NCBI GenBank assembly: GCA_964035575.1
Contig: OZ037835.1
Coordinates: forward strand, 806,001-870,000
Origin: Rhynchopus sp. YZ270_cl-10
Taxonomy: Eukaryota
Reading direction: 5' to 3'
DNA length: 64,000 nucleotides
The notes under the pieces are model-generated. The model saw only the letters and a program-made list of their open reading frames with translations. It ran no database searches and was not told the origin of the DNA. Position 1 is the stretch's first letter; each line of letters begins with the position of its first letter. This document shows, in pieces, positions 2,259 to 64,000 of the stretch. The translations under genes were made by a program, and so were the position numbers.

Positions 2259-2393
2259 CCGCCCTTCTGTCCTCGCACAACGCACCCGCAGTGGCATGAG
2301 GGCACTACCGCACGAGGCAGTGTCAACGTCGTACTCAGACTGCATTCGTCTTGGAAAAGAGGCAAACACAAAGAGCAAGTACGAACAGTGCGC

Positions 2394-5300
2394 TCACTCC
2401 TTGCTGTCCAAAATAATCCGTCTCGCAAGTTCAGGTTCCACAGCATCAGCATTGCGACAGCCTAATGCACGAGGAACTGTTGGAGGGACACCGATCACTC
2501 TCTTCAGCCGAAACCCATCAATCGTCCCGTCTTCCCCAGTGCAGATGCTCCACACACGCACGGTGTCGTCCGAGCAACCACATATCACTTCGCGTCCATC
2601 GGGGCTCACAGCAATACTGAAAAAATTAGTACAATGCCCTTGAATCTCTGCCACCTGCTCACCAGTGGTCATGCTCCACACACGCACATACGCACTGCCA
2701 CCGTGCCGAGCGCACGACACCACGTGGCCTCCATCAGGTGTGATTGCCACTCCGCACATCCAACCAGATTGCTGCAAGGTAAAGACCTCCTTCCCGCTGC
2801 CAGCATCCCACACACGCACAGCTTCGTTACAGTATGAAACAACACGAGACCCATCGGGAGTCATAGCCACACCTTCGGCATCATTGTGTTCGAACTCCAT
2901 CATGTTTTCTCCAGTGTGAAACATCCACAGATGTACATTGTTGTTACAGCACGAAACCACATGCACTCCATCAGCGCTCACTACTATATTCTGTCCGACT
3001 GTGAGTCCTTTAAATCTTCCGTGAGCTGGACAGGATCCCACCTCCTTCCCAGTCAGCATGTTCCACACACGGACAGTGTCCCTACGCCAAGAACATGTCA
3101 CCACGTGAGATGCATCGGGAGACAATGCGATACCTGCCTGTTCTGAACACTCCTTTGCAAACTCACTGGAAGCTGTGCATAACGTCATTTCCTTCCCCGT
3201 CGCAACGTTCCACACATGCACACTGCTTTCGCCAACGTCGTCGGAAGAGCAATCAACTAGATGAGATCCATCTGGGAACACCGTCACAGCCATACGATTC
3301 TTTGTGTCTGGTGCAAACACCTGTGTCTGCTTGCCGGTGGATGCGTTCCACATGTGTATCTTCTTCTCACTGCGCGAAATGATAGATCCATCAGGGGTCG
3401 CTCCCACAGAACCCACTGAGGATGAGGGTGCCTCGAAACCTGGTGCCTCCTTCCCTGTCATTATGTTCCACACTCGAATAGTTTTGTCGTAGGAGCATGA
3501 AACCACGTGGCATCCATCTGGTGACACTCGCACTGCATACACAGCTTTCGTATGTCCTTGCAACGCCATCACCTCCTTCCCAGTCGAAATGCTCCAAATA
3601 TGCAAATTGCCACTAAAGGATCCAGCGACCACGTGACATCCATCGGGAGTTACTGCAACACAAATCAACCGAGTGTGAGAATGGAACACCATCACCTCTG
3701 CCCCAGTCGAGAGGTTCCAAAGATGTGCATCCTCCTTAAAGCACGAAACAACATGCAATCCATCGGGGGTGACAGCTAGGGCATGTAGTGACGCCACACA
3801 GCAAGGCCACTGCCTCTCCTGCTTCCCCGTCACCAGATCCCATACGCACAGCTGCTTCTTCGAGCACGTCACAATGTGACTTCCGTCCATCGTAAGAACC
3901 ATGCTGTAAATGCCAGTCGACTCCATTGCCAGCAGTTCCTTCCCCGTCGAGAGATGCCACACACGGACGTCGGCTTGAGAACATGAAACAACTTTAGAAC
4001 TGTCGGGAGTGACTGCCACCTCGGTCACTTTACCTTCGTGACGTTCGAAAGTAACCACTACCTCACGAGTGTGCACATCCCACACACGCACCGTCTTGTC
4101 ATCAGAGCAGGAAACTATGCGATTGCAGTCAGGTGTTACTACTACTCCACATACACCTTTCACATGCCCTTCCAAGACCATCACCTCTTCCCCAGAAGAC
4201 ATGCTCCATACATGAATAGTTCCATCAGAGCCACCTGTCACAATTTGAGTGCCATCAGGAGTGACTGCTACATCTTTGGCACCAAGCTGCAGTACAGGAA
4301 GTGGTGTGCCAAGGGAGCAGTCAGGCAGCATCGTGCCACCCATGTCGCAGGTGTGGAACTCAGCGTGCTCCAGCCAGCAGTTCGAGAAGGAAGCACCCGT
4401 CAGCGCCGTCTCCACAAACAGAGACCCGCGAAGGTCGCAGTTCGACACACGGATCCCGCTCAGGTCCTCCCCACTCACAGGGATGCGTGCACGTGCCAGC
4501 AGTGCTGCTGCATTCGACCCTGCTGTCACAGCACCCTCACTACAGACACCTGCATCTCCATCTGAACTGCCACGTGTCGCCTTCACAGCCGCAAGCAGCT
4601 CTGTGCAGGCACGTTCGTACAGCACACTGTCTCCATACACCAGCGCCGCAAAGAACCCAAGCACACGCTGCGAGTCCTTGCTGAAGCTCCGCTGCACCAG
4701 CGTCCCCAGTGTCCCTGCTGGGTCACGTGCAAGCCGCCGTGCTGCAAGGTGCTCCCCAAGCGACTTGTGCCGGAACGTGAACGCACTCCGCTCCTCCCCA
4801 AAGTCCTCAATCCGGAACGGCAGGCAGCGGAAGCACGCATCCCACACAGCCTCACACACACCGTGCTGCGAATCAAGAATCTGCGACGCCACACCCACAG
4901 TCCCCTGCCACTCGTTTGTCTCCAGCATCCTGCATGCAACAAGCTCCCCTGCACGCACCACATCCTCCAAAGACACATCCGAAACAGCAACAGCAACAGC
5001 AACTCCACCAGACGCCATCTCCTTCTTCGTCCACGTCTCCAGGTAGGCCTCGTAGATCACCTCCTCAGAAGCCTTCCCGCTGCACTGTGCGTGGCACGCC
5101 ATGTGCAGCACAAACGGGTTCCGCAGCTGCACAAGTCCCTCAACGTCCTCCTCACGCACGAAGACTGTCCGCTCTCCATCCTTCTCCTTCTCCTTCCCCT
5201 CTTTGTGTTCCTTCTCCCAGGCTGTGTTTGCACGCTCGATGTACGTTCTCGCATCCACCTCTGTGAACGGCTGCATGTACACAGCACGCACACCAGCACC

Positions 5301-7541
5301 ACACACACCAGACGGAGACGTGTCCACACCCTTCAGGTACTCACCACGCACAGTCACAACAACGCTGCAGTGTGCCTTCACCCACGGATGCCGGCACAGA
5401 AGGCCACCCTCAGCCACCACAGCACCCACATCCTCCTGCGTCAGCCCCACCTCGTCCAGCGAGTCCAGCACCAGCACCACCTCGTACGTCTCCGCAAGGT
5501 ACGCACGGTCCGCCTCCCGCAGCGCAAACGACTCCAGCACAAACCTGTCCAGCCCTCCCTTCTCAAGCAGGTGCTGCTTCACAGTCGGCAGCGCCACAAA
5601 CACAGGGAAGTACGGCTTCGCATCCACATCCGCAGTCACATCACTCACCACGCTGTTTCTTTTCCTGTTCGTGTCTTCGTTGCTGGTGCTTTCGCTCTTC
5701 CTCGCAGACGTTGCAAGGTCGCTCAGAATTGCAATCGAAGCAGACGTCTTCCCGCTCCCTCCTTCTCCGATCACACACAGCACACCACACGTCCCTTGTC
5801 TTTCTTCTCTCGCATCCACATCAGGCTTGCGCTCTGTGCCCGCTGCCTGTGTGCACACGGAAGACGTCGGCCTCCTACGTACACGTGCACGAAGCCACCT
5901 CCGCACCTCCTCCATCAGCGGACGTGTCTCCGACTCATCCACACGTGTGTCGTCCCCCACACGCCCCTCCACGTACTGCGCAAGGTAGTCCTTGAACAAC
6001 GCGACTGTGTGTCCCATCACCTCCTGCAGCGCACCCACCTGCTCAGCCGCACTCGTCTCCCCCACACCAGCACACACCTCCTGCATCACAATCACGTCAA
6101 AGCGCAGCCCCATCATCCGCAGCAACGTCGGCGAAAGCTTCCACTGCACCCGGTACTCGATGTTCGCTGTGTACAGCAGCTCGTCCTCCGAAGCATACAC
6201 AGACGAGAACTTCACGTCTGCAGCACCCTCCTTCGCCACCACCACAAAGAACGTCCCACCCTTCCCGTACATGAAGCTCCGAGCCACATCCCGCTTCAGT
6301 GTTGTTGACGTGAAGCAGTTCCACACAATGTGCGTATTAAGAGCGTACTTCGCAGACACGTTCACATTGATCCCACGGAACACAGTCCGCAGCTGCTTCC
6401 GACGGCTCCCAATCAGCCGGTCCAGACCACGGATCAGCGGCGCAAAGGTCGCAATCACGTGCAGCTGCGGGGGTGCGGGTGACAGCTCAAACACGTTCGG
6501 TGCTGTCTTCCCAGGTGTCCCCTTCCACTCCTTCACTGCAGCCAGCTGCCCCACAGCACGCATCGCAGTGTTCATCGTCATGTACAGCGCAAGCGACTGT
6601 GACTTCACATCAGCAGCACTCCCGTGGTTGTCCAGCACAGCCCGCTCCGTCAGTCTGATGTACCGCAGCTTCCCGTCAGGCCCTTTTGCAATCTGCGGTG
6701 TCCCGTCCTCGTCACACACAACATCCCCGCCGCTGTCCAGCACATACTCCACGCAGTCAGACGTGAACAGGAACCCCGACAGCAGCAGCTCAAACGGGTC
6801 GCGTGCCGCCATCCAGTCCTCCACCTCCACGTGCCCACCACGTGTCCCCGCAGCCTCCCTCCGTCCTCTCATGTCCTCCAGCAGACGCTTGCACACCACA
6901 CGGAACCCCGCCTCCATGTGCCGCACGTGTTCGTCTGTGTAGCCCAACGGCGGATCCACCTTTGGCAGACCACGCAGCCAGCACAGCAGGTCTTCACCTC
7001 CATTGCTGTTCTTGTTGTTGTTGTCGTCTGTTTTCCGCAGCCACTCCACCTTCCGTCCGTCTGTGTGCCGCAGTGCACCCGTGTCCCCGTCAAGATCGTC
7101 CTCTCCCAGCTGTCTGTCACCTGTCGAGGTGTTCGTGTCTTTCGCCATGTCCATGTGAGGATCAGTAAGAGGTGCTGTCGTTGCATCACCTGTTGTTGTT
7201 GTTGTTGTGGCGACACCGTGAGTGAGGTACACCTGCACAGCATCCTCCACCTCCACAAGGATCTCTGCTGCATGCACCCCCAGCTCCGCCTCAAGTCGCC
7301 CCCGCACATCCGCGTCCCTGTGCTGCAGTGCGTACCACAGCGGCACCTTCCCGTCCCTGTCACGCACGTTCCCTGCCCCGTTCAAAACAAGAAACCGCAC
7401 TGCCTCCACGTCCCCCGCAAGCACAGCACTGTGCAGCATTGTCCTCCCGTCCACGCTGTCCACTGCGTCCACGGGCCTCTCCTTCCCAGTAATTCCTTTT
7501 GCAATCTCGTCCTTTTCAGGCTTCGACGCTCCGGATCCCAT
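2394..7541 (-). CDS. NLR-like protein copy 1 (1715 aa from MGSGASK): ankyrin, ADP-ribosyltransferase, NACHT, pentapeptide, WD40
   Basis: ANK: GRTMLHSAVLAGDVEAVRFLV...GKVPLWYA. ART: LYMTMNTAMR, VFRG, FTSTT, SEDELL (~6140-6600). Walker A GEGGSGKT (~5745-5769), Walker B VVLVLDSLDE, distal FRHKSLGEHLAA. Pentapeptides DLSGIRVSNCDLRGSLFVETALTGASFSNCWLEHAEF. More than 12 WD40 repeats (VAVTPDG...VRVWD). ATG at 7541 matches the start of copy 3. Confidence 0.92.
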   Translation of the reverse strand: MGSGASKPEKDEIAKGITGKERPVDAVDSVDGRTMLHSAVLAGDVEAVRFLVLNGAGNVRDRDGKVPLWYALQHRDADVRGRLEAELGVHAAEILVEVEDAVQVYLTHGVATTTTTTGDATTAPLTDPHMDMAKDTNTSTGDRQLGEDDLDGDTGALRHTDGRKVEWLRKTDDNNNKNSNGGEDLLCWLRGLPKVDPPLGYTDEHVRHMEAGFRVVCKRLLEDMRGRREAAGTRGGHVEVEDWMAARDPFELLLSGFLFTSDCVEYVLDSGGDVVCDEDGTPQIAKGPDGKLRYIRLTERAVLDNHGSAADVKSQSLALYMTMNTAMRAVGQLAAVKEWKGTPGKTAPNVFELSPAPPQLHVIATFAPLIRGLDRLIGSRRKQLRTVFRGINVNVSAKYALNTHIVWNCFTSTTLKRDVARSFMYGKGGTFFVVVAKEGAADVKFSSVYASEDELLYTANIEYRVQWKLSPTLLRMMGLRFDVIVMQEVCAGVGETSAAEQVGALQEVMGHTVALFKDYLAQYVEGRVGDDTRVDESETRPLMEEVRRWLRARVRRRPTSSVCTQAAGTERKPDVDAREERQGTCGVLCVIGEGGSGKTSASIAILSDLATSARKSESTSNEDTNRKRNSVVSDVTADVDAKPYFPVFVALPTVKQHLLEKGGLDRFVLESFALREADRAYLAETYEVVLVLDSLDEVGLTQEDVGAVVAEGGLLCRHPWVKAHCSVVVTVRGEYLKGVDTSPSGVCGAGVRAVYMQPFTEVDARTYIERANTAWEKEHKEGKEKEKDGERTVFVREEDVEGLVQLRNPFVLHMACHAQCSGKASEEVIYEAYLETWTKKEMASGGVAVAVAVSDVSLEDVVRAGELVACRMLETNEWQGTVGVASQILDSQHGVCEAVWDACFRCLPFRIEDFGEERSAFTFRHKSLGEHLAARRLARDPAGTLGTLVQRSFSKDSQRVLGFFAALVYGDSVLYERACTELLAAVKATRGSSDGDAGVCSEGAVTAGSNAAALLARARIPVSGEDLSGIRVSNCDLRGSLFVETALTGASFSNCWLEHAEFHTCDMGGTMLPDCSLGTPLPVLQLGAKDVAVTPDGTQIVTGGSDGTIHVWSMSSGEEVMVLEGHVKGVCGVVVTPDCNRIVSCSDDKTVRVWDVHTREVVVTFERHEGKVTEVAVTPDSSKVVSCSQADVRVWHLSTGKELLAMESTGIYSMVLTMDGSHIVTCSKKQLCVWDLVTGKQERQWPCCVASLHALAVTPDGLHVVSCFKEDAHLWNLSTGAEVMVFHSHTRLICVAVTPDGCHVVAGSFSGNLHIWSISTGKEVMALQGHTKAVYAVRVSPDGCHVVSCSYDKTIRVWNIMTGKEAPGFEAPSSSVGSVGATPDGSIISRSEKKIHMWNASTGKQTQVFAPDTKNRMAVTVFPDGSHLVDCSSDDVGESSVHVWNVATGKEMTLCTASSEFAKECSEQAGIALSPDASHVVTCSWRRDTVRVWNMLTGKEVGSCPAHGRFKGLTVGQNIVVSADGVHVVSCCNNNVHLWMFHTGENMMEFEHNDAEGVAMTPDGSRVVSYCNEAVRVWDAGSGKEVFTLQQSGWMCGVAITPDGGHVVSCARHGGSAYVRVWSMTTGEQVAEIQGHCTNFFSIAVSPDGREVICGCSDDTVRVWSICTGEDGTIDGFRLKRVIGVPPTVPRALGCRNADAVEPELARRIILDSKE

Positions 7542-17983: not shown

Positions 17984-18152
17984 TTTTAAATTCTTTGTTA
18001 TGCCCACGAGGTTTTCCCGTTGTTGTACTGCGGTGATGTTGATGTTGATGTTGGTGTGGGAGGTGTGAGGAAAGAAACAACACGGGCACATCTGCAGCAC
18101 ATTCTGCATAAAGATAACAGAGATTTTTCAAGAAAAAATGGTAACTCTGATA

Positions 18153-23113: not shown

Positions 23114-26100
23114 TCACCCCTTGCTGTTCAAAATAATCCGTCTCGCAAGTTCAGGTTCCACAGCATCAGCATTGCGACAGCCTAATGCACGAGGAACTGT
23201 TGGAGGGACACCGATCACTCTCTTCAGCCGCAACCCATCAACCGTCCCGTCTTCCCCAGTGCAGATGCTCCACACACGCACGGTATCGTCCGAACAACCA
23301 CACATCACTTCGCGTCCATCGGGGCTCACAGCAATACTGAAAAAATTAGCACAATACCCTTGAATCTCTGCCACCTGCTCACCAGTGCTCCACATACGCA
23401 CAGTGCCGTTCCGAGCGCACGACACCACGTGACCTCCATCAGGTGTGAATGCCACTCCGCACACCCTGCTAGAGTGCCGCACGGAGAAGACCTCCTTCCC
23501 GCTGCCAACATCCCACACACGCAGAGATTTGTCCCCAGAGTGTGAAGCAACACGAGACGCATCGGAAGTAACAGCCACACCTTGCACCACAGACGTGTGT
23601 TCGAACACCATCGTCTCTTCTCCAGTGTGCAGTTTCCACATGCGTACGGTGTTGTCATCGGAGCACGACACCACATGCACTCCATCAGGAGTCACTGTCA
23701 CTCCATTGACGATGTCTGTGTGTCCTGTAAATACTGCCACCTCCTTCCCAGTCAGCATGCTCCACACATGGACAGTTTCATAAAACCCACGTTTACCACT
23801 GGAACGGGACAGCACGTGAGATGCATCGGGAGACACCGCCACGCACGTAAATTTTGAACGTTCCTTCCAGATATCTGCAAACTCACTGGAAACTGTGCCG
23901 AAAGTCACTTCCTTCCCCGTCGCAACGTTCCACACATGCACACTGCTTTCGACGTCATCGGAAGAGCAATGAACTGCACTGGATCCATCTGGGAACACAG
24001 CAATACGATTCTTTGTGTCTGGTTCAAACACCTGTGTCTGCCTGCCGGTGGAGGCGTCCCACATGTGTATCTTCTTCTCACTGCGCGAAATGATAGATCC
24101 ATCAGGGGTCGCTCCCACAGAACGCACTGAGGATGAGTGTGCTTCGAAACCTGGTGTCTCCTTCCCGGTCATTATGTTCCACACTCGAATAGTCCCGTCG
24201 TAGGAGCATGAAACCACGTGGCATCCATCTGGTGACACTCGCACTGCACTCACCCCCCTAGTATGTCCTTGCAACACCGTCACCTCCTTCCCAGTCGAAA
24301 TGCTCCAAACGTGTACAGTGCCGCTCTCGGATCCAGCAACCACGTGACATCCATCTGGAGTTACTGCAACAGAATGCAACTCAGCGGCGGCATGGAACAC
24401 CATCACTTCTGCCCCAGTCGAGAGGTTCCAAAGATGTGCTTCCTCCTTGTCGCACGTAACAACGTGGCATCCATCGGGGGTGACTGCCAGTTGATAAATG
24501 AATTCCACACAGCAAGGCCACTGCCTCTCCTGCTTCCCCGTCACCAGATCCCATACGCACAGCTCTTCCTCAGAGCATGTCACAATGTTACGTCCGTCCA
24601 TCGTCACAACCATGCCAGCGCTACAATGCGACGTTACTGCCAGCACTTCCATCCCCGTAACCAGATCCCACACACGGATGCCGTCTTCAGGAGAAGATGA
24701 AACAACTTTAGAACTGTCGGGAGTGACTGCCACTGCAGTCACTTTACCTAAGTGTCCCTCCAAGACGAACACTGCCTCCCCAGTGTGCACATCCCACACA
24801 CGCACAGTTTCCTCAGAACTGGTAACTATGCGGGTTCCGTCAGGTGATACTGCTAATCCATATACACAAGTCTCATGTCCTTCCAAGACCATCACCTCTT
24901 CACCAGAAGACATGCTCCACACATGAATGGTTCCATCAGAGCAACCTGTCACCATTTGAGTGCCATCGGGGGTAACTGCCACAGAATTCGTAGGAAGGTA
25001 GACTACAGGAAGTGGTGTGCCAAGTGCGCAGTCAGGCAGCATCATGCCACCCATGTCGCAGGTGTGGAACTCAGTGTGCTCCAGCCAGCAGTTCGAGAAG
25101 GAAGCGCCCGTCAGCGCCGTCTCCACAAACAGAGACCCGCGCAGGTCGCAGTTCGACACACGGATCCCGCTCAGGTCCTCCCCACTCACAGGGATGCGTG
25201 CACGTGCCAGCAGTGCTGCTGCATTCGACCCTGCTGACACAGCAGCCTCCTCGCTAACACCTGTACCTGAACTGCAACGTGTCGCCTTCACAGCCGCAAG
25301 CAGCTCTGTGCAGGCACGTTCGTACAGCACACTGTCTCCACACACCAGTGCCGCAAAGAACCCAAGCACACGCTGCGAGTCCTTGCTGAAGCTCCGCTGC
25401 ACCAGCGTCCCCAGTGTCCCTGCTGGATCACGTGCAAGCCGCCGTGCTGCAAGGTGCTCCCCAAGCGACTTGTGCCGGAACGTGAACGCACTCCGCTCCT
25501 CCCCAAAGTCCTCAATCCGGAACGGCAGGCAGCGGAAGCACGCATCCCGCACAGCCGCACACACACCGTGCTGCGAATCAAGAATCTGCGACGCCACACC
25601 CACAGTCCCCTGCCACTCGTTTGTCTCCAACATCCTGCATGCAACAAGCTCCCCTGCACGCACCACATCCTCCAAAGACACATCCGAAACAGCAACAGCA
25701 ACAGCAACTCCACCAGACGCCATCTCCTTCTTCGTCCACGTCTCCAGGTAGGCCTCGTAGATCACCTCCTCAGAAGCCTTCCCGCTGCACTGTGCGTGGC
25801 ACGCCATGTGCAGCAAAAACGGGTTCCGCAGCTGCACAAGTCCCTCAACGTCCTCCTCACGCACGAAGACTGTGCACTCTCCATCCTTCTCCTTCTCCTT
25901 CACCTCTTTGTGTTCCTTCTCCCAGGCTGTGTTTGCACGCTCGATGTACGTTCTCGCATCCACCTCTGTGAACGGCTGCATGTACACAGCACGCACACCA
26001 GACCCACACACACCAGACGGAGACGTGTCCACACCCTTCAGGTACTCACCACGCACAGTCACAACAACGCTGCAGTGTGCCTTCACCCACGGATGCCGGC

Positions 26101-28282
26101 ACAGAAGGCCACCCTCAGCCACCACAGCACCCACATCCTCCTGCGTCAGCCCCACCTCGTCCAGCGAGTCCAGCACCAGCACCACCTCGTACGTCTCCGC
26201 AAGGTACGCACGGTCCGCCTCCCGCAGCGCAAACGACTCCAGCACAAACCTGTCCAGCCCTCCCTTCTCAAGCAGGTGCTGCTTCACAGTCGGCAGCGCC
26301 ACAAACACAGGGAAGTACGGCTTCGCATCCACATCCGCAGTCACATCACTCACCACGCTGTTTCTTTTCCTGTTCGTGTCTTCGTTGCTGGTGCTTTCGC
26401 TCTTCCTCGCAGACGTTGCAAGGTCGCTCAGAATTGCAATCGAAGCAGACGTCTTCCCGCTCCCTCCTTCTCCGATCACACACAGCACACCACACGTCCC
26501 TTGTCTTTCTTCTCTCGCATCCACATCAGGCTTGCGCTCTGTGCCCGACGTCTGCCTCCTACGTACACGTGCACGAAGCCACCTCCGCACCTCCTCCATC
26601 AGCGGACGTGTCTCCGACTCATCCACACGTGTGTCATCCCCCACACGCCCCTCCACGTACTGCGCAAGGTAGTCCTTGAAGAACGCGACTGTGTGTCCCA
26701 TCACCTCCTGCAGCGCACCCACCTGCTCAGCCGCACTCGTCTCCCCCACATTTACTCCCACACCACCACCCTCACCCACACCAGCACACACCTCCTGCAT
26801 CACAATCACGTCAAAGCGCAGCCCCATCATCCGCAGCAACGTCGGCGAAAGCTTCCACTGCACTCGGTACTCGATGTTCGCTGTGTACAGCAGCTCGTCC
26901 TCCGAAGCATACACAGACGAGAACTTCACGTCTGCAGCACCCTCCTTCGCCACCACCTCAAAGAACGTCCCACCCTTCCCGTACATGAAGCTCCGAGCCA
27001 CATCCCGCTTCAGTGTTGTTGACGTGAAGCAGTTCCACACAATGTGCGTATTAAGAGCGTACTTCGCAGACACGTTCACATTGATCCCACGGAACACAGT
27101 CCGCAGCTGCTTCCGACGGCTCCCAATCAGCCGGTCCAGACCACGGATCAGCGGCGCAAAGGTCGCAATCACGTGCAGCTGCGGGGGTGCGGGCGACAGC
27201 TCAAACACGTTCGGTGCTGTCTTCCCAGGTGTCCCCTTCCACTCCTTCACTGCAGCCAGCTGCCCCACAGCACGCATCGCAGTGTTCATCGTCATGTACA
27301 GCGCAAGCGACTGTGATTCCACATCAGCAGCACTCCCGTGGTTGTCCAGCACAGCCCGCTCCGTCAGTCTGATGTACCGCAGCTTCCCGTCAGGCCCTTT
27401 CACAATCTGCGGTGTCCCGTCCTCGTCACACACAACATCCCCGCCGCTGTCCAGCACATACTCCACACAGTCAGAGGTGAACAGGAACCCCGACAGCAGC
27501 AGCTCAAACGGGTCGCGTGCCGCCATCCAGTCCTCCACCTCCACGTGCCCACCACGTGTCCCCGCAGCCTCCCTCCGTCCTCTCATGTCCTCCAGCAGAC
27601 GCTTGCACACCACACGGAACCCCGCCTCCATGTGCCGCACGTGTTCGTCTGTGTAGCCCAACGGCGGATCCATCTTTGGCAGACCACGCAGCCAGCACAG
27701 CAGGTCTTCACCTCCATTGCTGTTCTTGTTGTTGTTGTCGTCTGTTTTCCGCAGCCACTCCACCTTCCGTCCGTCTGTGTGCCGCAGTGCACCCGTGTCC
27801 CCGTCAAGATCGTCCTCTCCCAGCTGTCTGTCTCCAGTCGAGGTGTTCGTGTCTTTCGCCATGTCCATGTGAGGATCAGTAAGAGGTGCTGTCGTTGCAT
27901 CTCCACTGCTCCGTTTCACCCCCACACCTGTTCTTGTTGCTGTTTTTGTGGCGACACCGTCAGTGAGGTACACCTGCACAGCATCCTCCACCTCCACAAG
28001 GATCTCTGCTGCATGCACCCCCAGCTCCGCCTCAAGTCGCCCCCGCACATCCGCGTCCCTGTGCTGCAGTGCGTACCACAGCGGCACCTTCCCGTCCCTG
28101 TCACGCACGTTCCCTGCCCCGTTCAAAACAAGAAACCGCACTGCCTCCACGTCCCCCGCAAGCACGGCACTGTGCAGCATTGTCCTCCCGTCCACGCTGT
28201 CCACTGCGTCCACGGGCCTCTCCTTTCCAGTAATTCCTTTTGCAATCTCGTCCTTTTCAGGCTTCGACGCTCCGGATCCCAT
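23114..28282 (-). CDS. NLR-like ANK-ART-NACHT-pentapeptide-WD40 protein copy 2 (1722 aa)
   Basis: Uninterrupted ORF with the same motifs as copy 1. MGSGASK ATG at 28282. Confidence 0.92.
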   Translation of the reverse strand: MGSGASKPEKDEIAKGITGKERPVDAVDSVDGRTMLHSAVLAGDVEAVRFLVLNGAGNVRDRDGKVPLWYALQHRDADVRGRLEAELGVHAAEILVEVEDAVQVYLTDGVATKTATRTGVGVKRSSGDATTAPLTDPHMDMAKDTNTSTGDRQLGEDDLDGDTGALRHTDGRKVEWLRKTDDNNNKNSNGGEDLLCWLRGLPKMDPPLGYTDEHVRHMEAGFRVVCKRLLEDMRGRREAAGTRGGHVEVEDWMAARDPFELLLSGFLFTSDCVEYVLDSGGDVVCDEDGTPQIVKGPDGKLRYIRLTERAVLDNHGSAADVESQSLALYMTMNTAMRAVGQLAAVKEWKGTPGKTAPNVFELSPAPPQLHVIATFAPLIRGLDRLIGSRRKQLRTVFRGINVNVSAKYALNTHIVWNCFTSTTLKRDVARSFMYGKGGTFFEVVAKEGAADVKFSSVYASEDELLYTANIEYRVQWKLSPTLLRMMGLRFDVIVMQEVCAGVGEGGGVGVNVGETSAAEQVGALQEVMGHTVAFFKDYLAQYVEGRVGDDTRVDESETRPLMEEVRRWLRARVRRRQTSGTERKPDVDAREERQGTCGVLCVIGEGGSGKTSASIAILSDLATSARKSESTSNEDTNRKRNSVVSDVTADVDAKPYFPVFVALPTVKQHLLEKGGLDRFVLESFALREADRAYLAETYEVVLVLDSLDEVGLTQEDVGAVVAEGGLLCRHPWVKAHCSVVVTVRGEYLKGVDTSPSGVCGSGVRAVYMQPFTEVDARTYIERANTAWEKEHKEVKEKEKDGECTVFVREEDVEGLVQLRNPFLLHMACHAQCSGKASEEVIYEAYLETWTKKEMASGGVAVAVAVSDVSLEDVVRAGELVACRMLETNEWQGTVGVASQILDSQHGVCAAVRDACFRCLPFRIEDFGEERSAFTFRHKSLGEHLAARRLARDPAGTLGTLVQRSFSKDSQRVLGFFAALVCGDSVLYERACTELLAAVKATRCSSGTGVSEEAAVSAGSNAAALLARARIPVSGEDLSGIRVSNCDLRGSLFVETALTGASFSNCWLEHTEFHTCDMGGMMLPDCALGTPLPVVYLPTNSVAVTPDGTQMVTGCSDGTIHVWSMSSGEEVMVLEGHETCVYGLAVSPDGTRIVTSSEETVRVWDVHTGEAVFVLEGHLGKVTAVAVTPDSSKVVSSSPEDGIRVWDLVTGMEVLAVTSHCSAGMVVTMDGRNIVTCSEEELCVWDLVTGKQERQWPCCVEFIYQLAVTPDGCHVVTCDKEEAHLWNLSTGAEVMVFHAAAELHSVAVTPDGCHVVAGSESGTVHVWSISTGKEVTVLQGHTRGVSAVRVSPDGCHVVSCSYDGTIRVWNIMTGKETPGFEAHSSSVRSVGATPDGSIISRSEKKIHMWDASTGRQTQVFEPDTKNRIAVFPDGSSAVHCSSDDVESSVHVWNVATGKEVTFGTVSSEFADIWKERSKFTCVAVSPDASHVLSRSSGKRGFYETVHVWSMLTGKEVAVFTGHTDIVNGVTVTPDGVHVVSCSDDNTVRMWKLHTGEETMVFEHTSVVQGVAVTSDASRVASHSGDKSLRVWDVGSGKEVFSVRHSSRVCGVAFTPDGGHVVSCARNGTVRMWSTGEQVAEIQGYCANFFSIAVSPDGREVMCGCSDDTVRVWSICTGEDGTVDGLRLKRVIGVPPTVPRALGCRNADAVEPELARRIILNSKG

Positions 28283-30395: not shown

Positions 30396-33300
30396 TCACT
30401 CCTCGACATCACAAAGAATCCGTCTCGCAAGTTCAGGTTCCACAGCATCAGCATTGCGACAGCCTAATGCACGAGGAACTGTTGGAGGGACACCGATCAC
30501 TCTCTTCAGCCGCAACCCATCAATCGTCCCGTCTTCCCCAGTGCAGATGCTCCACACACGCAGCGTGTTGTCATTGCAAACACAAATCACTTCGCTTCCG
30601 TCGGGGCTCACAGCAAGTCTGCGCAACTTGCAATATCCCCTGATCGCTGCCACCTGCTCACCAGTGGTCATGCTCCACACAGTCACACTGCACGTGCTCG
30701 ACACCACGTGATTTTCATCGGGTGTCAGTGCCACTCCGAACACGCTACTATCATGCTGCAAGGTGAAGACCTCCTTCCCGCTGGCAACATCCCACACACG
30801 CAGAGTCTTGTCGGTAGACCATGAAAGAAGACGAGATCCATCGCGTGTCACAGACACGCCCACGACAGAGAATACAGTATGTCCTTTGAACACCATCGTC
30901 TCTTCTCCAGTGTGAAGTATCCACCTGTGTACGGTGTAATCCTCATAGTACGAAACCACATGCACTCCATCAGGAGCCACTACCACTCCTCGGGGACGGC
31001 ACGTAGTTCCTGCATATTCTGACACCTTCTTCCCAGTCGGCATGCTCCACACATACGTACGGTAAGTGCCTTTCTCCTGTGAAGACTCTGAACAGGTCAC
31101 CACGTGAGATGCATTGGGAGACACTGCCAGCTTAAGTGATACAGACTGTTTCAAGAACACCGCAAACTCACTGGAATCTGTGCACACAGGCTGCACTTTC
31201 CCTGTCGCAACGTCCCACACACACACTCTCCTTTCGCCAGCGTCGTCGCAAGAGCAAGAAACTACATGAGATCCATCTGGGGACACAGCAGCAGCATCAC
31301 CACGTTGATATGTTCCTGCTTCAACTACCTGTGTCTGCCTGCCGGTGGATGCGTTCCAGATGGAGCTCCTCTTGCCACCGTACGAAATGATTGATCCATC
31401 AGGGGCCACTGCCACAGACCCGCCTGACAGTCCTTCGAAACCCGGTGTCTCCTTCCCAGTCGTGATGTTCCAAACACGAACAGTATCATCTTCGTAGGAG
31501 CATGAAACCACGTGGCATCCATCTGGTAACACTGCTACTGCATACACACGAGAGGTATGCCCTTGCAACACCGTCACCTCCTTCCCAGTCGAAATGCTCC
31601 AAACGTGCACAGTGCCCCTCTTGGATCCAGCAACCACGTGACATCCATCTGGAGTGACTGCCACTGCCGACAACTTATCGTCGGCATAGAACACCATCAC
31701 CTCTGCCCCAGTGGAGAGGTTCCAAAGATGTGCGCCATCAAAGCACGAAACAACATGGCATCCATCTGGAGTTACTGCCAGTGCATGCGGAGACTTCACA
31801 CAAAAAGGCCACTGCATCTCCTGCTTCCCCGTCACCAGATCCCATACGCACAGCACATCCCCCGAGCATGTCACTATTTGGCTTCCATCCTTGGTAACAA
31901 CCATGCTGCGAATGCCAGGCGACTCCACTGCCAGCACTTCCATCCCCGTCGAGAGATCCCACACACGGATGCCGTCTCCATAAGAAGATGAAACAACTTT
32001 AGAACTGTCGGGAGTGACTGCCACTTCCTCAACCTTACATTCGTGGCCTTCGAAGACATACACTCTCTCCCCAGTGTGCATATCCCACACATGCACAGTT
32101 TTATCAGCAGAGCAACCAACTACGCGGGTTTCGTCAGGTGTCACAGCCACTCCAAACATCTCCCATGAAGGTCCTTCCAAAACCATCACCTCTTCCCCAG
32201 AAGACAGGCTCCACACATGTACTCCGCCATCAAAGCCAGCTGTCACAATTTGACTGCCATCAGATGTCACTGCTACATCTTTGGCATCATGCTGCAGTAC
32301 AGGAAGTGGTGTGCCAAGGGAGCAGTCAGGCAGCATCGTGCCACCCATGTCGCAGGTGTGGAACTCAGTGTGCTCCAGCCAGCAGTTCGAGAAGGAAGCG
32401 CCCGTCAGCGCCGTCTCCACAAACAGAGACCCGCGCAGGTCGCAGTTCGACACACGGATCCCGCTCAGGTCCTCCCCACTCACAGGGATGCGTGCACGTG
32501 CCAGCAGTGCTGCTGCATTCGACCCTTCTGTCACAGCAGCTTCAAAAGGAACTGCACTTGATTCTGCACCTGTACCTGAACTGCCACATGTCGCCTTCAC
32601 AGCCGCAAGCAGTTCTGTGCAGGCACGTTCGTACAGCACACTGTCTCCACACACCAGTGCCGCAAAGAACCCAAGCACACGCTGCGAGTCCTTGCTGAAG
32701 CTCCGCTGCACCAGCGTCCCCAGTGTCCCTGCTGGGTCACGTGCAAGCCGCCGTGCTGCAAGGTGCTCCCCAAGCGACTTGTGCCGGAACGTGAACGCAC
32801 TCCGCTCCTCCCCAAAGTCCTCAATCCGGAACGGCAGGCAGCGGAAGCACGCATCCCGCACAGCCGCACACACACCGTGCTGCAAATCAAGAATCTGCGA
32901 CGCCACACCCACAGTCCCCTGCCACTCGTTTGTCTCCAGCATCCTGCATGCAACAAGCTCCCCTGCACGCACCACATCCTCCAAAGACACATCCGAAACA
33001 GCAACAGCATCAGCAACTCCACCAGACGCCATCTCCTTCTTCGTCCACGTCTCCAGGTAGGCCTCGTAGATCACCTCCTCAGAAGCCTTCCCGCTGCACT
33101 GTGCGTGGCACGCCATGTGCAGCACAAACGGGTTCCGCAGCTGCACAAGTCCCTCAACGTCCTCCTCACGCACGAAGACTGTGCGCTCTCCATCCTTCTC
33201 CTTCTCCTTCTCCTTCTCCTTCCCCTCTTTGTGTTCCTTCTCCCAGGCTGTGTTTGCACGCTCGATGTACGTTCTCGCATCCACCTCTGTGAACGGCTGC

Positions 33301-35624
33301 ATGTACACAGCACGCACACCAGCACCACACACACCAGACGGAGACGTGTCCACACCCTTCAGGTACTCACCACGCACAGTCACAACAACGCTGCAGTGTG
33401 CCTCCACCCATGGATGCCGGCACAGAAGGCCACCCTCAGCCACCACAGCACCCACATCCTCCTGCGTCAGCCCCACCTCGTCCAGCGAGTCCAGCACCAG
33501 CACCACCTCGTACGTCTCCGCAAGGTACGCACGGTCCGCCTCCCGCAGCGCAAACGACTCCAGCACAAACCTGTCCAGCCCTCCCTTCTCAAGCAGGTGC
33601 TGCTTCACAGTCGGCAGCGCCACAAACACAGGGAAGTACTGCTTCGCATCCGCATCCGCAGTCACATCACTCACCACGCTGTTCCTGTTCGTGTCTTCGC
33701 TGTCGGTGCTTTCGCTCTTCCTCGCAGACGTTGCAAGGTCGCTCAGAATTGCAATCGAAGCAGACGTCTTCCCGCTCCCTCCTTCTCCGATCACACACAG
33801 CACACCACACGTCCCTTGTCTTTCTTCTCTCGCATCCACATCAGGCTTGCGCTCTGTGCCCGCTGCTGCCTGTGTGCACACGGAAGACGTCGGCCTCCTA
33901 CGTACACGTGCACGAAGCCACCTCCGCACCTCCTCCATCAGCGGACGTGTCTCCGACTCATCCACACGTGTGTCGTCCCCCACACGCCCCTCCACGTACT
34001 GCGCAAGGTAGTCCTTGAAGAACGCGACTGTGTGTCCCATCACCTCCTGCAGCGCACCCACCTGCTCAGCCGCACTCGTCTCCCCCACACCACCACCACC
34101 CTCACCCACACCAGCACACACCTCCTGCATCACAATCACGTCAAAGCGCAGCCCCATCATCCGCAGCAACGTCGGCGAAAGCTTCCACTGCACCCGGTAC
34201 TCGATGTTCGCTGTGTACAGCAGCTCGTCCTCCGAAGCATACACAGACGAGAACTTCACGTCTGCAGCACCCTCCTTCGCCACCACCACAAAGAACGTCC
34301 CACCCTTCCCGTACATGAAACTCCGAGCCACATCCCGCTTCAGTGTTGTCGACGTGAAGCAGTTCCACACAATGTGCGTATTAAGAGCGTACTTCGCAGA
34401 CACGTTCACATTGATCCCGCGGAACACAGTCCGCAGCTGCTTCCGACGGCTCCCAATCAGCCGGTCCAGACCACGGATCAGCGGCGCAAAGGTCGCAATC
34501 ACGTGCAGCTGCGGGGGTGCGGGTGACAGCTCAAACACGTTCGGTGCTGTCTTCTCAGGTGTCCCCTTCCACTCCTTCACCGCAGCCAGCTGACCCACAG
34601 CACGCATCGCAGTGTTCATCGTCATGTACAGCGCAAGCGACTGTGACTTCACATCAGCAGCACTCCCGTGGTTGTCCAGCACAGCCCGCTCCGTCAGTCT
34701 GATGTACCGCAGCTTCCCGTCAGGCCCTTTCGCAATCTGCGGTGTCCCGTCCTCGTCACACACAACATCCCCGCCGCTGTCCAGCACATACTCCACACAG
34801 TCAGACGTGAACAGGAACCCCGACAGCAGCAGCTCAAACGGGTCGCGTGCCGCCATCCAGTCCTCCACCTCCACGTGCCCACCACGTGTCCCCGCAGCCT
34901 CCCTCCGTCCTCTCATGTCCTCCAGCAGACGCTTGCACACCACACGGAACCCCGCCTCCATGTGCCGCACGTGTTCGTCTGTGTAGCCCAACGGCGGATC
35001 CACCTTTGGCAGACCACGCAGCCAGCACAGCAGGTCTTCACCTCCATTGCTGTTCTTCTTGTTGTTGTTGTTGTTGTCATCTGTTTTCCGCAGCCACTCC
35101 ACCTTCCGTCCGTCTGTGTGCCGCAGTGCACCCGTGTCCCCGTCAAGATCGTCCTCTCCCAGCTGTCTGTCTCCAGTCGAGGTGTTTGTGACTTTCGTCA
35201 TGTTCATGTGAGGGTCAGTGAGAGGTGCTGTCGTTGCATCTCCACCGCTCCGTTTCACCCCCACACCTGTTGTTCTTGTTGCTGCAATTCTGGCGACACC
35301 GTCAGTGAGGTACACCTGCACAGCATCCTCCACCTCCACAAGGATCTCTGCTGCATGCACCCCCAGCTCCGCCTCAAGTCGCCCCCGCACATCCGCGTCC
35401 CTGTGCTGCAGTGCGTACCACAGCGGCACCTTCCCGTCCCTGTCACGCACGTTCCCTGCCCCATTCTCCACAAGAAACCGCACTGCCTCCACGTCCCCCG
35501 CAAGCACGGCACTGTGCAGCATTGTCTTCCCGTCCACGCTGTCCACTGCGTCTACAGGCCTCTCCTTCCCAGTAATTCCCTTTGCAATCTCGTCCTTTTC
35601 AGGCTTCGACGCTCCGGATCCCAT
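30396..35624 (-). CDS. NLR-like ANK-ART-NACHT-pentapeptide-WD40 protein copy 3 (1742 aa)
   Basis: Uninterrupted ORF starting MGSGASK. All ART, Walker A/B, pentapeptide and WD40 motifs are present. Confidence 0.93.
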   Translation of the reverse strand: MGSGASKPEKDEIAKGITGKERPVDAVDSVDGKTMLHSAVLAGDVEAVRFLVENGAGNVRDRDGKVPLWYALQHRDADVRGRLEAELGVHAAEILVEVEDAVQVYLTDGVARIAATRTTGVGVKRSGGDATTAPLTDPHMNMTKVTNTSTGDRQLGEDDLDGDTGALRHTDGRKVEWLRKTDDNNNNNKKNSNGGEDLLCWLRGLPKVDPPLGYTDEHVRHMEAGFRVVCKRLLEDMRGRREAAGTRGGHVEVEDWMAARDPFELLLSGFLFTSDCVEYVLDSGGDVVCDEDGTPQIAKGPDGKLRYIRLTERAVLDNHGSAADVKSQSLALYMTMNTAMRAVGQLAAVKEWKGTPEKTAPNVFELSPAPPQLHVIATFAPLIRGLDRLIGSRRKQLRTVFRGINVNVSAKYALNTHIVWNCFTSTTLKRDVARSFMYGKGGTFFVVVAKEGAADVKFSSVYASEDELLYTANIEYRVQWKLSPTLLRMMGLRFDVIVMQEVCAGVGEGGGGVGETSAAEQVGALQEVMGHTVAFFKDYLAQYVEGRVGDDTRVDESETRPLMEEVRRWLRARVRRRPTSSVCTQAAAGTERKPDVDAREERQGTCGVLCVIGEGGSGKTSASIAILSDLATSARKSESTDSEDTNRNSVVSDVTADADAKQYFPVFVALPTVKQHLLEKGGLDRFVLESFALREADRAYLAETYEVVLVLDSLDEVGLTQEDVGAVVAEGGLLCRHPWVEAHCSVVVTVRGEYLKGVDTSPSGVCGAGVRAVYMQPFTEVDARTYIERANTAWEKEHKEGKEKEKEKEKDGERTVFVREEDVEGLVQLRNPFVLHMACHAQCSGKASEEVIYEAYLETWTKKEMASGGVADAVAVSDVSLEDVVRAGELVACRMLETNEWQGTVGVASQILDLQHGVCAAVRDACFRCLPFRIEDFGEERSAFTFRHKSLGEHLAARRLARDPAGTLGTLVQRSFSKDSQRVLGFFAALVCGDSVLYERACTELLAAVKATCGSSGTGAESSAVPFEAAVTEGSNAAALLARARIPVSGEDLSGIRVSNCDLRGSLFVETALTGASFSNCWLEHTEFHTCDMGGTMLPDCSLGTPLPVLQHDAKDVAVTSDGSQIVTAGFDGGVHVWSLSSGEEVMVLEGPSWEMFGVAVTPDETRVVGCSADKTVHVWDMHTGERVYVFEGHECKVEEVAVTPDSSKVVSSSYGDGIRVWDLSTGMEVLAVESPGIRSMVVTKDGSQIVTCSGDVLCVWDLVTGKQEMQWPFCVKSPHALAVTPDGCHVVSCFDGAHLWNLSTGAEVMVFYADDKLSAVAVTPDGCHVVAGSKRGTVHVWSISTGKEVTVLQGHTSRVYAVAVLPDGCHVVSCSYEDDTVRVWNITTGKETPGFEGLSGGSVAVAPDGSIISYGGKRSSIWNASTGRQTQVVEAGTYQRGDAAAVSPDGSHVVSCSCDDAGERRVCVWDVATGKVQPVCTDSSEFAVFLKQSVSLKLAVSPNASHVVTCSESSQEKGTYRTYVWSMPTGKKVSEYAGTTCRPRGVVVAPDGVHVVSYYEDYTVHRWILHTGEETMVFKGHTVFSVVGVSVTRDGSRLLSWSTDKTLRVWDVASGKEVFTLQHDSSVFGVALTPDENHVVSSTCSVTVWSMTTGEQVAAIRGYCKLRRLAVSPDGSEVICVCNDNTLRVWSICTGEDGTIDGLRLKRVIGVPPTVPRALGCRNADAVEPELARRILCDVEE

Positions 35625-57934: not shown

Positions 57935-59873
57935 GCTCACAGCAAGTCCATACAAACCACAATATGCACTGATCGCTGCCACCCTCCCACCAGTGGTCAT
58001 GCTCCACACAGTTATACTGTGCGAACTCGACACGACGTGAGCTCCATCAGGTGTCAGTGCCACTCCGTACACGCCATACTCATGCTCCAAGGCGAAGACC
58101 TCCTTCCCGCTGGCAACATCCCAGTCTCGTCGAAAGAGCATGAAACAAAACGAGATCCATCGCGAGTCACGGTCGCACCGGTGATAATATCAGTATGTCC
58201 TTTGAACACCATCGTCTCTTCTCCAGTGTGAAGTTTCGACATGTGTACGGTGCCGTCAGAATAGTACGAAAGCACATGCATTCCATCAGGAGTCACTACC
58301 GCTCTCGCTGAACGGCAAGTAGTTCTTGCATATGCTGACACCTTCTTCCCAGTCGGCATGCTCCACACATACGTACAGCTACGGTCTTCCTCCTCTGTCT
58401 CCTGTGAAGACTCTGAACAGGTCACCACGTGAGATACATCGGGAGACACTGCAAAGGATAGCAGTGTTCCTGACTGTCTCAAGAACACCGCAAACTCACT
58501 GGAATCTGTGCACAAAGGCTGCACTTTCCCTGTCGCAACGTCCCACACACGCGCTCTCCTTTCGCCAGCGTCGTCGCAAGAGCAATAAACTATATGAGAT
58601 CGATCTGGGGACACAGCATCAGCATCATCATGGTTAGTCATTCCTGCTTCAACTACCTGTGTCTGCCTGCCGGTGGATGCGTTCCAGATGGAGTTCCTCT
58701 TGCCATCGTACGAAATGATAGATCCATCAGGGGCCACTGCCGCATACCAGCCTGAGACTCCTTCGAAACCTGGTGTCTCCTTCCCGGTCGTGATGCTCCA
58801 CACTCGGACAGTACCGTCCCAGGAGCTTGAAACCACGTGGCATCCATCTGGTGACACTGCCGTCACCTTAGCAGTATGTCCTTGCAACACCATCACCTCC
58901 TTCCCAGTCGAAATGCTCCAAACGTGCACATTGCCACTCTCGGATCCAGCAACCACGTGACATCCATCGGGAGTGACTGCCACTGCTGTCAACTCAGTGT
59001 CGGCATGGAACACCATCACCTCTGCCCCAGTCGAGAGGTTCCAAAGATGTGCACCATCACAGCACGAAACAACATGGCATCCATCGGGAGTGACTGCCAG
59101 TGCATGCGAAGACTTCACACAGCAAGGCCACCGCCTCTCCTGCTTCCCCGTCACCAGATCCCATACGCACAGCACATCCCCCGAGCATGTCACTATTTGG
59201 CTTCCATCCTTGGTAATAACCATGCTGCGAATGCCAGGCGACTTTATTACTATGGCCAGCACTTCCATCCCCGTCGAGAGATCCCACACACGGATGCCGT
59301 CTTGAGGAGAAGTTGAAACAACTTTAGAAGTGTCGGGAGTGACTGCCACTTCGTCCACCTTAGCTTCGTCGTCGTGGCCTTCCAAGACGAACACTGTCTC
59401 CCCAGTGTGCACATCCCACACACGCACAGTTTTGTCAGTAGAGCACGAAACTACATGGGTTCCGTCAGGTGTTACTGCCACGCCATGGATTTCTTCGTAA
59501 TCTTCCGTGCGTGCGTGCCCTTTCAAGACCATCACTTCTTTCCCAGAAGACATTCTCCACACATGTACTGTGCCTCTTCCGCCAGCTGATACCATGTGAC
59601 CACCATCAGGTGTCACTGCCACAGCACGGGCACTATGCTGCAGTACAGGAAGTGGTGTGCCAAGGGAGCAGCATCGTGCCACCCATGTCGCAGGTGTGGA
59701 ACTCAGTGTGCTCCAGCCAGCAGTTCGAGAAGGAAGCGCCCGTCAGCGCCGTCTCCACAAACAGAGACCCGCGCAGGTCGCAGTTCGACACACGGATCCC
59801 GCTCAGGTCCTCCCCACTCACAGGGATGCGTGCACGTGCCAGCAGTGCTGCTGCATTCGACCCAGCTGTCACA
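57935..59873 (-). pseudogene. NLR copy 5 remnant: pentapeptide plus WD40 region only
   Basis: Begins at VTAGSNAAALL, fused to the 3' flank of copy 4. 8-bp deletion at ~59670, 10-bp deletion at ~58123, and ~210-bp deletion at ~57935 removing the C-terminus. Confidence 0.9.
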
Positions 59874-62900: not shown

Positions 62901-64000
62901 CACGCACAGTCACAACAACGCTGCAGTGTGCCTCCACCCACGGATGCCGGCACAGAAGGCCACCCTCAGCCACCACAGCACCCACATCCTCCTGCGTCAG
63001 CCCCACCTCGTCCAGCGAGTCCAGCACCAGCACCACCTCGTACGTCTCCGCAAGGTACGCACGGTCCGCCTCCCGCAGCGCAAACGACTCCAGCACAAAC
63101 CTGTCCAGCCCTCCCTTCTCAAGCAGGTGCTGCTTCACAGTCGGCAGCGCCACAAACACAGGGAAGTACGGCTTCGCATCCGCATCCGCAGTCACGTCAC
63201 TCACCACGCTGTTTCTGTTCCTGTTCGTGTCTTCGCTGTCGGTGCTTTCGCTCTTCCTCGCAGACGTTGCAAGGTCGCTCAGAATTGCAATCGAAGCAGA
63301 CGTCTTCCCACTCCCTCCTTCTCCGATCACACACAGCACACCACACGTCCCTTGTCTTTCTTCTCTCGCATCCACATCAGGCTTGCGCTCTGTGCCCGCT
63401 GCTGCCTGTGTGCACACGGAAGACATCTGCTTCCCAACTCCACGTACACGTGCACGAAGCCACCTCCGCACCTCCTCCATCAGCGGACGTGTCTCCGACT
63501 CATCCACACGTGCGTCGTCCCCCACACGCCCCTCCACGTACTGCGCAAGGTAGTCCTTGAAGAACGCGACTGTGTGTCCCATCACCTCCTGCAGCGCACC
63601 CACCTGCTCAGCCGCACTCGTCTCCCCCACATTTACTCCCACACCAGCACACACCTCCTGCATCACAATCACGTCAAAGCGCAGCCCCATCATCCGCAGC
63701 AACGTCGGCGAAAGCTTCCACTGCACCCGGTACTCGATGTTCGCTGTGTACAGCAGCTCGTCCTCCGAAGCATACACAGACGAGAACTTCACGTCTGCAG
63801 CACCCTCCTTCGCCACCACCACAAAGAACGTCCCACCCTTCCCGTACATGAAGCTCCGAGCCACATCCCGCTTCAGTGTTGTCGACGTGAAGCAGTTCCA
63901 CACAATGTGCGTATTAAGAGCGTACTTCGCAGACACGTTCACATTGATCCCACGGAACACAGTCCGCAGCTGCTTCCGACGGCTCCCAATCAGCCGGTCC
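59921..64000 (-). pseudogene. NLR-like copy 4 (5' end beyond the window), single 1-bp frameshift in the WD40 region
   Basis: ORF 60490..63960 continues in 59921..60553. CATGCTCC-CACATAC at 60551-60565 lacks the A present in other copies. May be a sequencing error in an otherwise intact gene. Confidence 0.85.

Follow-up and report, generated by a model that had tools for sequence, protein, structure and literature searches.

The 64,000-nt window analysed here, from contig OZ037835.1 (positions 806,001 to 870,000) of the likely diplonemid Rhynchopus sp. YZ270_cl-10, harbors five copies of one intronless gene, all of them located on the minus strand. The encoded protein follows the tripartite order of NLR-like receptors, with a putative N-terminal effector containing ankyrin repeats and an ADP-ribosyltransferase (ART) region, a central STAND module of NACHT type followed by pentapeptide repeats, and a C-terminal repeat sensor of WD40 blades. 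Together with their close relatives, these genes probably represent an NLR-like receptor repertoire in which the ART-NACHT half is homogenised by gene conversion and the top faces of the WD40 propellers are diversified by selection, putatively resulting in differing specificities.

Proteins encoded by the cluster and size of the family

The original prediction, made from the sequence of the window alone, had described five copies which are almost identical up to the motif GTPLPV and divergent thereafter. GTPLPV was found in all five, with a pairwise amino acid identity of 97-100% in the preceding ART, NACHT and pentapeptide parts, 61-76% in the WD40 region and 86-94% in a 50-residue tail. As predicted, the five WD40 regions start at positions 4310, 25021, 32315, 59661 and 61854, with ends near 2546, 23266, 30548 and 60073, and all ten loop motifs quoted as examples are present, one per copy as claimed. 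The re-convergence reported for the C-terminus applies to four of the five copies, where it is seen at RLKRVIG; copy D has no tail.

Table 1. Gene copies in the window and features of copy A.
Feature	Position	Strand	Description
Copy A	2394..7541	-	Intact open reading frame (ORF), 1715 aa; MGSG start, ankyrin, ART, NACHT, pentapeptide, 14 WD40 blades, conserved tail
Copy A, ankyrin repeat(s)	7329..7451	-	Residues ~31-71; Pfam Ank_4 E=3e-8, Ank_2 E=2e-7, both above cut-off
Copy A, ART region	6084..6995	-	R389, T-S412-T and E452-x-E454 motifs; PF01129 29 bits vs cut-off 22.3
Copy A, NACHT module	4581..5790	-	Predicted from AlphaFold2 model and Foldseek matches to NLR NACHTs
Copy A, Walker A	5745-5768	-	GEGGSGKT
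Copy A, Walker B	5451-5477	-	VLVLDSLDE
Copy A, winged-helix motif	near 4780	-	FRHKS
Copy A, pentapeptide repeats	4311..4466	-	PF00805 above cut-off
Copy A, WD40 region	2547..4310	-	14 blades, two predicted propellers; hypervariable at P-8, P-6, W-7, W-5 per blade
Copy A, blade 7 hypervariable codons	3543-3545, 3537-3539, 3489-3491, 3483-3485	-	P-8, P-6, W-7, W-5
Copy A, conserved C-terminal tail	2397..2546	-	50 residues; ICTGEDG...RLKRVIGVPPTVPRA...VEPELARR
Copy B	23114..28282	-	Intact, 1722 aa; WD40 23267-25021
Copy C	30396..35624	-	Intact, 1742 aa; WD40 30549-32315
Copy D	57940..59873	-	5'-truncated pseudogene; 8-bp and 10-bp deletions; tail deleted
Copy E	59921..64000	-	5' end beyond window; WD40 60074-61854; apparent 1-bp frameshift near 60558

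Copy D starts in the NACHT-pentapeptide linker, directly after the 3' flank of copy E, of which the first 45-47 bp are identical to those of each of copies A, B and C. An assembly error as source of the copy D lesions was ruled out for two of the three, the 10-bp deletion and the 3' truncation both being spanned by error-free short-read contigs from runs which may include the source sample. At the frameshift of copy E, one short-read contig bridges without a gap at 4 differences, and others have the extra base together with 6-9 differing sites. Next to an unrelated WD40 ORF, an isolated stretch of 168 bp (57056-57223) shows 100% identity with part of the ankyrin-coding sequence of copy A (7236-7403) and of copy B, and is presumably a recent fragment or a conversion product.

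Pfam matches in the N-terminal region are confined to ankyrin and ART, and no HET domain was found among them. The ART region falls into ART clusters of a protein-family atlas (score 0.96); a sequence search with this region against the PDB returned nothing meaningful, a profile search was dominated by WD40 matches, and an NCBIfam search gave weak pentapeptide matches only. An AlphaFold2 model of the part from ART to pentapeptide repeats, based on a 32-sequence alignment, reached a predicted local distance difference test (pLDDT) value of 86. In Foldseek searches, its ART part matched Vis, HopU1, ExoS and C3 (E ~1e-7 to 1e-6), and the best matches of the NACHT part were the NACHTs of NLRC4 (E=2e-12), NOD2 and NLRP3, with template modelling scores to the target of up to 0.56. 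According to this model, the module adopts the NBD-HD1-WHD-HD2 fold. The Pfam NACHT profile PF05729 remains below the cut-off in copy A (15.6 vs 26.7 bits) and is listed for the relatives P0069, P0070, P0073, P0076 and P0077. The WD40 region, modelled from the single sequence, has a pLDDT of 68.6, with values of mostly 70-89 in the first and weaker ones in the second propeller, and its Foldseek matches are double propellers including Apaf-1 (E=1e-30). Elsewhere in the window, an ORF of 858 aa (20073-22649, minus strand) shows a weak C-terminal match to ADPrib_exo_Tox (E=0.2) and R/S/E-like motifs by eye; BLAST against the ART of the family was not significant, and it is possibly a second ART gene of the cluster.

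A search with the N-terminal half (N-half) as query led to 78 proteins among 8000 scored candidates, of which P0001-P0061 are close relatives with 80-100% identity (72% for P0003). Fifty-four of these 61, including the products of copies A, B and C, reach the tail and were kept; seven truncated or fused proteins (P0002, P0003, P0010, P0015, P0032, P0040 and P0042) were set aside. The 54 proteins carry 18 contig labels, with 24 proteins on one label of 1.54 Mb, and we infer that all of them originate from one genome, in which the family probably comprises about 60 copies. The single origin fits the contig depth in two sequencing runs, which was 6348 and 6167 in conserved stretches as against about 100 in copy-specific ones, a roughly 60-fold contrast, although depth is not a copy number. 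Essentially all 54 proteins possess the catalytic and NTPase motifs in intact form. In detail, TVFRG, [C/S]FTSTT and E-D-E each occur in 54/54 and correspond to the catalytic R, S-T-S-like and E-x-E motifs of R-S-E (ARTC-type) ADP-ribosyltransferases. Walker A agrees with GxxGxGKT (GEGGSGKT in 52/54, GDGGSGKT in 2/54), and the invariable Walker B VLVLDSLDE (54/54) is of the NACHT type D[GAS]hDE, described as the feature setting NACHT apart from other STANDs (10.1101/2022.07.19.500537).

Remoter relatives with about 24-40% identity come, among 20 of the 150 listed matches, ten of which carried names, from Diplonema papillatum (P0076), a transcriptome with the label 'Hpha', Lacrimia, Flectonema, Euglena and Pigoraptor; those listed for the ART region include Namystynia and Papus. 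This set of relatives makes a diplonemid host likely. P0113 and P0089, from Euglena gracilis and a Pigoraptor transcriptome, combine NACHT, pentapeptide repeats and WD40 with ART-like motifs. The Pigoraptor relative could be due to contamination or transfer.

Variability and probable selection in the WD40 sensor

Across the 54 proteins, ART and NACHT are 94-97% identical, with a mean entropy of 0.10 and 0.20 bits, respectively, and entropy amounts to 0.87 bits in blades 1-7 and 1.07 bits in blades 8-14. At the 51 WD40 sites exceeding 2.5 bits, the median pairwise identity is 14% and 53 distinct combinations are found. The sole case of a shared sensor is P0028 and P0044, which have the same contig label, identical WD40 regions and N-halves of 96% identity. 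Scaffold pairs that are 90-91% identical share only 9-46% of the hypervariable sites, this one identical pair apart, and each of these sites accommodates 14-17 amino acids including K, E, Q, W and M. Decay of pseudogenes was ruled out as the cause of this variability, since 54/61 close relatives extend to the full tail in spite of it. The blade architecture is nearly fixed at 14 blades with an anchor occupancy of 0.96-1.0, and blades within one gene are 35-38% identical in the median (maximum 57%), by which repeat shuffling inside the gene was ruled out.

For comparison between blades, residues were indexed relative to the Pro of the a-b turn (P) and the Trp of strand c (W). Entropy reaches 3.0 bits at P-8 and 2.9 bits at P-6, with 2.1-2.2 bits at W-7 and W-5. 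P-7, flanked by two hypervariable codons, keeps its residue (1.1 bits), and the TPDG and W-x-x-x-TG turns mostly remain below 0.7 bits. DSSP analysis of the AlphaFold2 model assigned P-7 to P-2 to strand a in six of seven blades of the first propeller, and W-7/W-5 to the b-c turn. The changes had been proposed to cluster after a GH dipeptide and in the b-c turn; peaks do occur at the d-a loop or start of strand a and at the b-c turn, but the former is not restricted to positions after GH, as it is formed by x-V-x just before the core of strand a in all 14 blades, many of which have no GH.

We take P-8/P-6 and W-7/W-5 to be equivalent to positions 7/9 and 25/27 of HET-E, presuming the repeat numbering of that protein. 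In HET-E, the codons under selection are found at the top of the propeller, those numbered 7/9 within the d-a loop and those numbered 25/27 within the b-c turn (PMC1805685), and HET-E positions 7/8/9 are paralleled by the high-low-high alternation of single codons at P-8/P-7/P-6. Judging from the DSSP register and from this analogy, the variable positions probably form the top face. A random distribution over the predicted structure, which had been named as evidence against the original prediction, was not observed. In the first propeller, 30/70 top positions exceed 2 bits in the 54 proteins as against 0/64 bottom-loop positions, and of the 31 gap events among the five copies, 26 are located in top loops. 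The same preference is seen for codons with an M8 posterior above 0.9 (27/171 top-loop vs 5/396 other WD40 codons, Fisher p=9e-11). Linkers of the N-half served as control: most of them occur in 9-25 lengths, yet 1/169 columns exceeds 2 bits, compared with 71/184 in top loops. Mere tolerance of changes is disfavoured, because these indel-rich linkers are not hypervariable.

Site models were calculated by our own GY94 F3x4 implementation on 578 of 620 WD40 columns with frameshifts masked. Omega is 0.95 under M0, and the comparisons of M7 with M8 (twice the log-likelihood difference, 2dlnL, of 152), M8a with M8 (145; omega 6.3 on 15% of the 578 codons) and M1a with M2a (146; omega 6.9, 14% of sites) are all significant, so that omega is not at or below 1 everywhere. 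The statistic holds far from indels (77 and 48), for the intact copies A-C only (61) and for each third of the WD40 region with its own tree (27, 43 and 65). No positive selection was detected in the N-half (likelihood-ratio test (LRT) 1.2, omega ~0.35).

The M7 vs M8 comparison proposed for this purpose is significant, but it exaggerates selection. The reason is the silent divergence of the top loops, which is raised about threefold: neutral tree lengths are 3.8-4.6 for top loops and key sites, compared with 1.2-1.3 for strands and bottom loops. Inclusion of multi-base changes reduced the LRT from 146 to 53.8, site rate variation reduced it to 20.1, and both together to 12.5 (p=0.002); multi-base terms alone improved M1a by about 99 log-likelihood units. 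When data were simulated under a null in which omega was at most 1 and the clock of the loops was threefold, the LRT ranged from 6 to 36 with omega up to 3.9 and was nominally significant in 7/7 replicates. An excess of selection nevertheless remains. The 52 codons analogous to those of HET-E have an omega of 4.1-4.7 on the scaffold clock; when neighbouring codons of the top loops provide the clock, omega is 1.6-1.7 (p=0.0003-0.004). We hold diversifying selection on the top faces with moderate to strong confidence.

Probable gene conversion and alternative explanations

Four-fold degenerate sites, counted in codons with invariant first two bases, vary at 4/259 positions in the NACHT region vs 51/173 in WD40, where the variable share falls with distance from the hypervariable sites (30/79, 15/48 and 6/46, p=0.009). 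A partition fit of copies A-C, leaving out a non-converged 'HET' row, gave neutral tree lengths of 0.09 for NACHT, 0.17 for ART, about 1.0 for the WD40 scaffold, 3.2 for top loops and 0.07 for the tail, with an omega of 0.12 for ART. Synonymous divergence (dS) in WD40 is 0.15-0.38 among the window copies, and the nucleotide identity of A and B varies between 95% in blades 8 and 14 and 65-73% in blades 2, 10 and 11. The 5' flanks of B and C are 86% identical and that of A is alignable for only about 50 bases; judging from this divergence, the copies are older than the similarity of their NACHTs would imply. In addition, linkage in the N-half decays with distance (r2 from 0.46 to 0.07, p=0.0005), and for six proteins with the contig label of the window the nearest neighbour is on the same contig in 6/6 cases for the N-half vs 1/6 for the WD40 scaffold. 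Since the silent sites are also nearly invariant, and since grouping by contig is seen for N-halves but not for sensors, we attribute the constancy of the N-half mainly to gene conversion, a process that the original prediction had not considered. We are strongly confident of conversion among neighbours as the homogenising force, along with some purifying selection. A divergence peak under conversion is a published footprint of selection (PMC3924837).

In the preferred reading, gene conversion would keep the constant half uniform, and conversion tracts overwriting top-face codons would be selected against, so that these codons and their silent neighbours retain an old and deep divergence. Diversifying selection would hold the top faces distinct and putatively provide each copy with a different recognition specificity. 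Of the original prediction, the part concerning selection is supported, and recognition specificity is proposed by analogy. On the model of NLRs and HET-E, the top faces may bind a ligand, the most plausible sources of which are intracellular bacteria or viruses, and binding may release the NACHT switch. Copies may then oligomerise, and near-identical NACHTs could permit mixed oligomers. The arginine-type ART might then ADP-ribosylate a target, whereby the invader is restricted or the cell is killed. All these steps, from ligand binding and oligomerisation to ADP-ribosylation as output, are conceived by analogy. Defence against intracellular bacteria or viruses is a plausible purpose, because bacterial symbionts live in the cytoplasm and nucleus of diplonemids (10.64898/2026.01.29.702485).

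Several results weigh against this reading. The DNA-level tests are based on five copies, two of them broken and three also represented among the 54 proteins. Measured on their own silent clock, the 171 top-loop codons have an omega of 0.98 (~1.0) and the 52 HET-E-analogous codons one of 1.36-1.43 (p=0.17-0.22), and the scaffold strands are under weak purifying selection (omega 0.85-0.93). At hypervariable codons, 26/44 informative pairs (0.59) differ in the third position, as against 0.31 in simulations with point mutation and an omega of 6.9. Recent swaps of several blades or of whole sensor cassettes were found in 0/1431 pairs among the 54 proteins, and a test for incompatibilities inside the WD40 region did not reach significance (p=0.12).

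The main rival, to which we assign a low probability, is a localised mutational process such as short-patch replacement, error-prone repair or micro-conversion, which rewrites top-face codons while selection removes only broken products. It would account for the excess silent divergence and the gap events in top loops, for the gain by multi-base terms, and for the about equal divergence of the three codon positions at hypervariable codons (0.57/0.55/0.51). However, omega remains above 1 with rate variation and multi-base terms as well as in relation to neighbouring loop codons, and P-7 is spared amid its hypervariable neighbours. The spectrum is not narrow, as all six exchange types occur, and exact 15-mers common to different blades are almost all situated in scaffold motifs, not in loops. 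The same silent excess is moreover expected from deep ancestry preserved against conversion, from which five DNA copies cannot fully separate this process. A mutagenesis of adenines as in diversity-generating retroelements was ruled out by the substitution spectrum and the amino acid repertoire. Just as improbable, in our estimate, is an antibody-like germline repertoire of about 60 ART-armed NLRs. Conversion would maintain its constant region, and a dedicated process, either local mutagenesis or short-patch rewriting, would act on the top-face codons and create new specificities faster than point mutation can, the products being sorted by selection.

Somewhat less credible is a relaxed constraint, under which diversity as such is not selected: top loops would accumulate neutral changes, and the resulting heterology would block conversion locally. 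The d-a loops of WD40 proteins are generally less conserved than a-b and c-d turns; the omega of top loops as a class is about 1, and a null of this kind led to false-positive M2a results in all seven simulations. Yet the observed LRT and omega exceed every one of these replicates, the unconstrained linkers of the same genes are not hypervariable, single codons alternate within loops of nearly fixed length, and nearly identical scaffolds share few hypervariable sites. Least probable appears a purpose other than defence, with the selected diversity serving allorecognition, prey recognition or a propeller that targets the ART to diverse endogenous substrates. HET-E and HET-D, which have the same selected register, do act in allorecognition (PMC1805685), but about 60 paralogues with 53 combinations in 54 proteins would be better suited to numerous, rapidly changing ligands than to a system of few alleles, and the bacterial symbionts of diplonemids (10.64898/2026.01.29.702485) also favour defence.

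We conclude that the pattern is real and strong, and an ART-armed NACHT-WD40 repertoire which a likely diplonemid has diversified with no conservation among internal repeats appears to be new. Plants, animals, fungi and bacteria are all known to have diversified NLR repertoires. Our literature search, which covered result listings and the openings of abstracts, yielded no description of such a repertoire in diplonemids or other euglenozoans, and the genome paper on Diplonema papillatum contains, in its main text, none of the terms WD40, NACHT, ADP-ribos or immun (PMC10161547). If the preferred reading is true, an abundant group of marine protists possesses immune receptors that act cell-autonomously and bear an ADP-ribosylating effector, and the binding-face pattern of HET-E was reached by another genetic route, through fixed position-specific blades and conversion of the constant half. 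The recognition of intracellular invaders by free-living protists would become testable with a constant chassis, about 53 natural sensor variants, mapped variable positions and relatives in D. papillatum. The data also provide a clear case of M7/M8 overstating selection.

Other genes and repeats were noticed between and beside the copies. A protein kinase ORF of 966 aa (13079-15979, minus strand; PF00069 E=4e-61) lies between copies A and B, and at 17225-18109 (minus strand) a ubiquitin-like domain is combined with leucine-rich repeats and a 75-bp tandem repeat in another repeat-sensor-like gene of the cluster. A separate WD40 ORF (55436-56989, minus strand) has an N-terminal part that is ubiquitin-like by eye. 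Two ORFs of 317 and 516 aa at 37943-40514 (plus strand) have no Pfam match; by eye, we take them to contain a zinc-finger-like motif and a C-terminus resembling a hAT transposase. Broken ORFs at 623-2280 (minus strand) have no Pfam support and are presumably, by a motif recognised by eye, nucleotide-cyclase fragments. Two adjoining tandem arrays with a purity of 97-99% occupy 42195-43664; one consists of 81 copies of a 9-bp unit, the other of 99 copies of a related 7-bp unit.

Comparison with known systems

The HET-E/HET-D analogy of the original prediction applies to the selected positions and fails for the repeat mechanics. With the HNWD/NWD genes of Podospora (het-e, het-d), the family shares the order of effector, NACHT and WD40 and the location of selected positions in pairs around a conserved residue, at the d-a loop or start of strand a and at the b-c turn (PMC1805685); diversifying selection is indicated at the same pairs here, with an own-clock omega not significantly above 1. 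In contrast, HNWD repeats within a gene are 80-100% identical, and units are gained, lost and shuffled (PMC13449251), whereas the blades of one gene are 35-38% identical here. Instead of polymorphic repeat numbers there are 14 blades with anchors 96-100% occupied in 54 proteins, the effector is an ART and not HET, and what is homogenised is the N-half, across paralogues.

Zebrafish NLR-B30.2 genes likewise form a large clustered family with positive selection in the C-terminal recognition domain and discordant domain trees, and their NACHT dS of 0.01-0.05 within groups has been attributed to gene conversion (PMC4852459). The present sensor differs in being a double WD40 propeller with a far greater divergence, which extends to silent sites; the genes are intronless and carry an enzymatic ART in a unicellular eukaryote.

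A NACHT followed by pentapeptide repeats is also known from bacterial proteins, and the nearest atlas clusters are bacterial, commonly of Cyanobacteriota (score 0.90-0.92); bNACHT01 similarly combines a stable NACHT with a diversifying C-terminus (10.1101/2022.07.19.500537). The named sequence relatives among the matches listed are, on the other hand, all eukaryotic and mostly euglenozoan, and a bacterial origin of the NACHT-pentapeptide part is regarded as a lead only.

The combination of a STAND NTPase with two WD40 propellers resembles Apaf-1, in agreement with the structural match of the WD40 model. Apaf-1 is a single-copy, conserved protein of NB-ARC type with a CARD, whereas the present proteins are of NACHT type, multi-copy and hypervariable. 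Finally, the predicted fold and the R, T-S-T and E-x-E motifs relate the ART to R-S-E ADP-ribosyltransferases such as Vis, HopU1, ExoS and the vertebrate ecto-ARTs, from which it differs by its fusion, as N-terminal putative effector, to a predicted intracellular NACHT protein.

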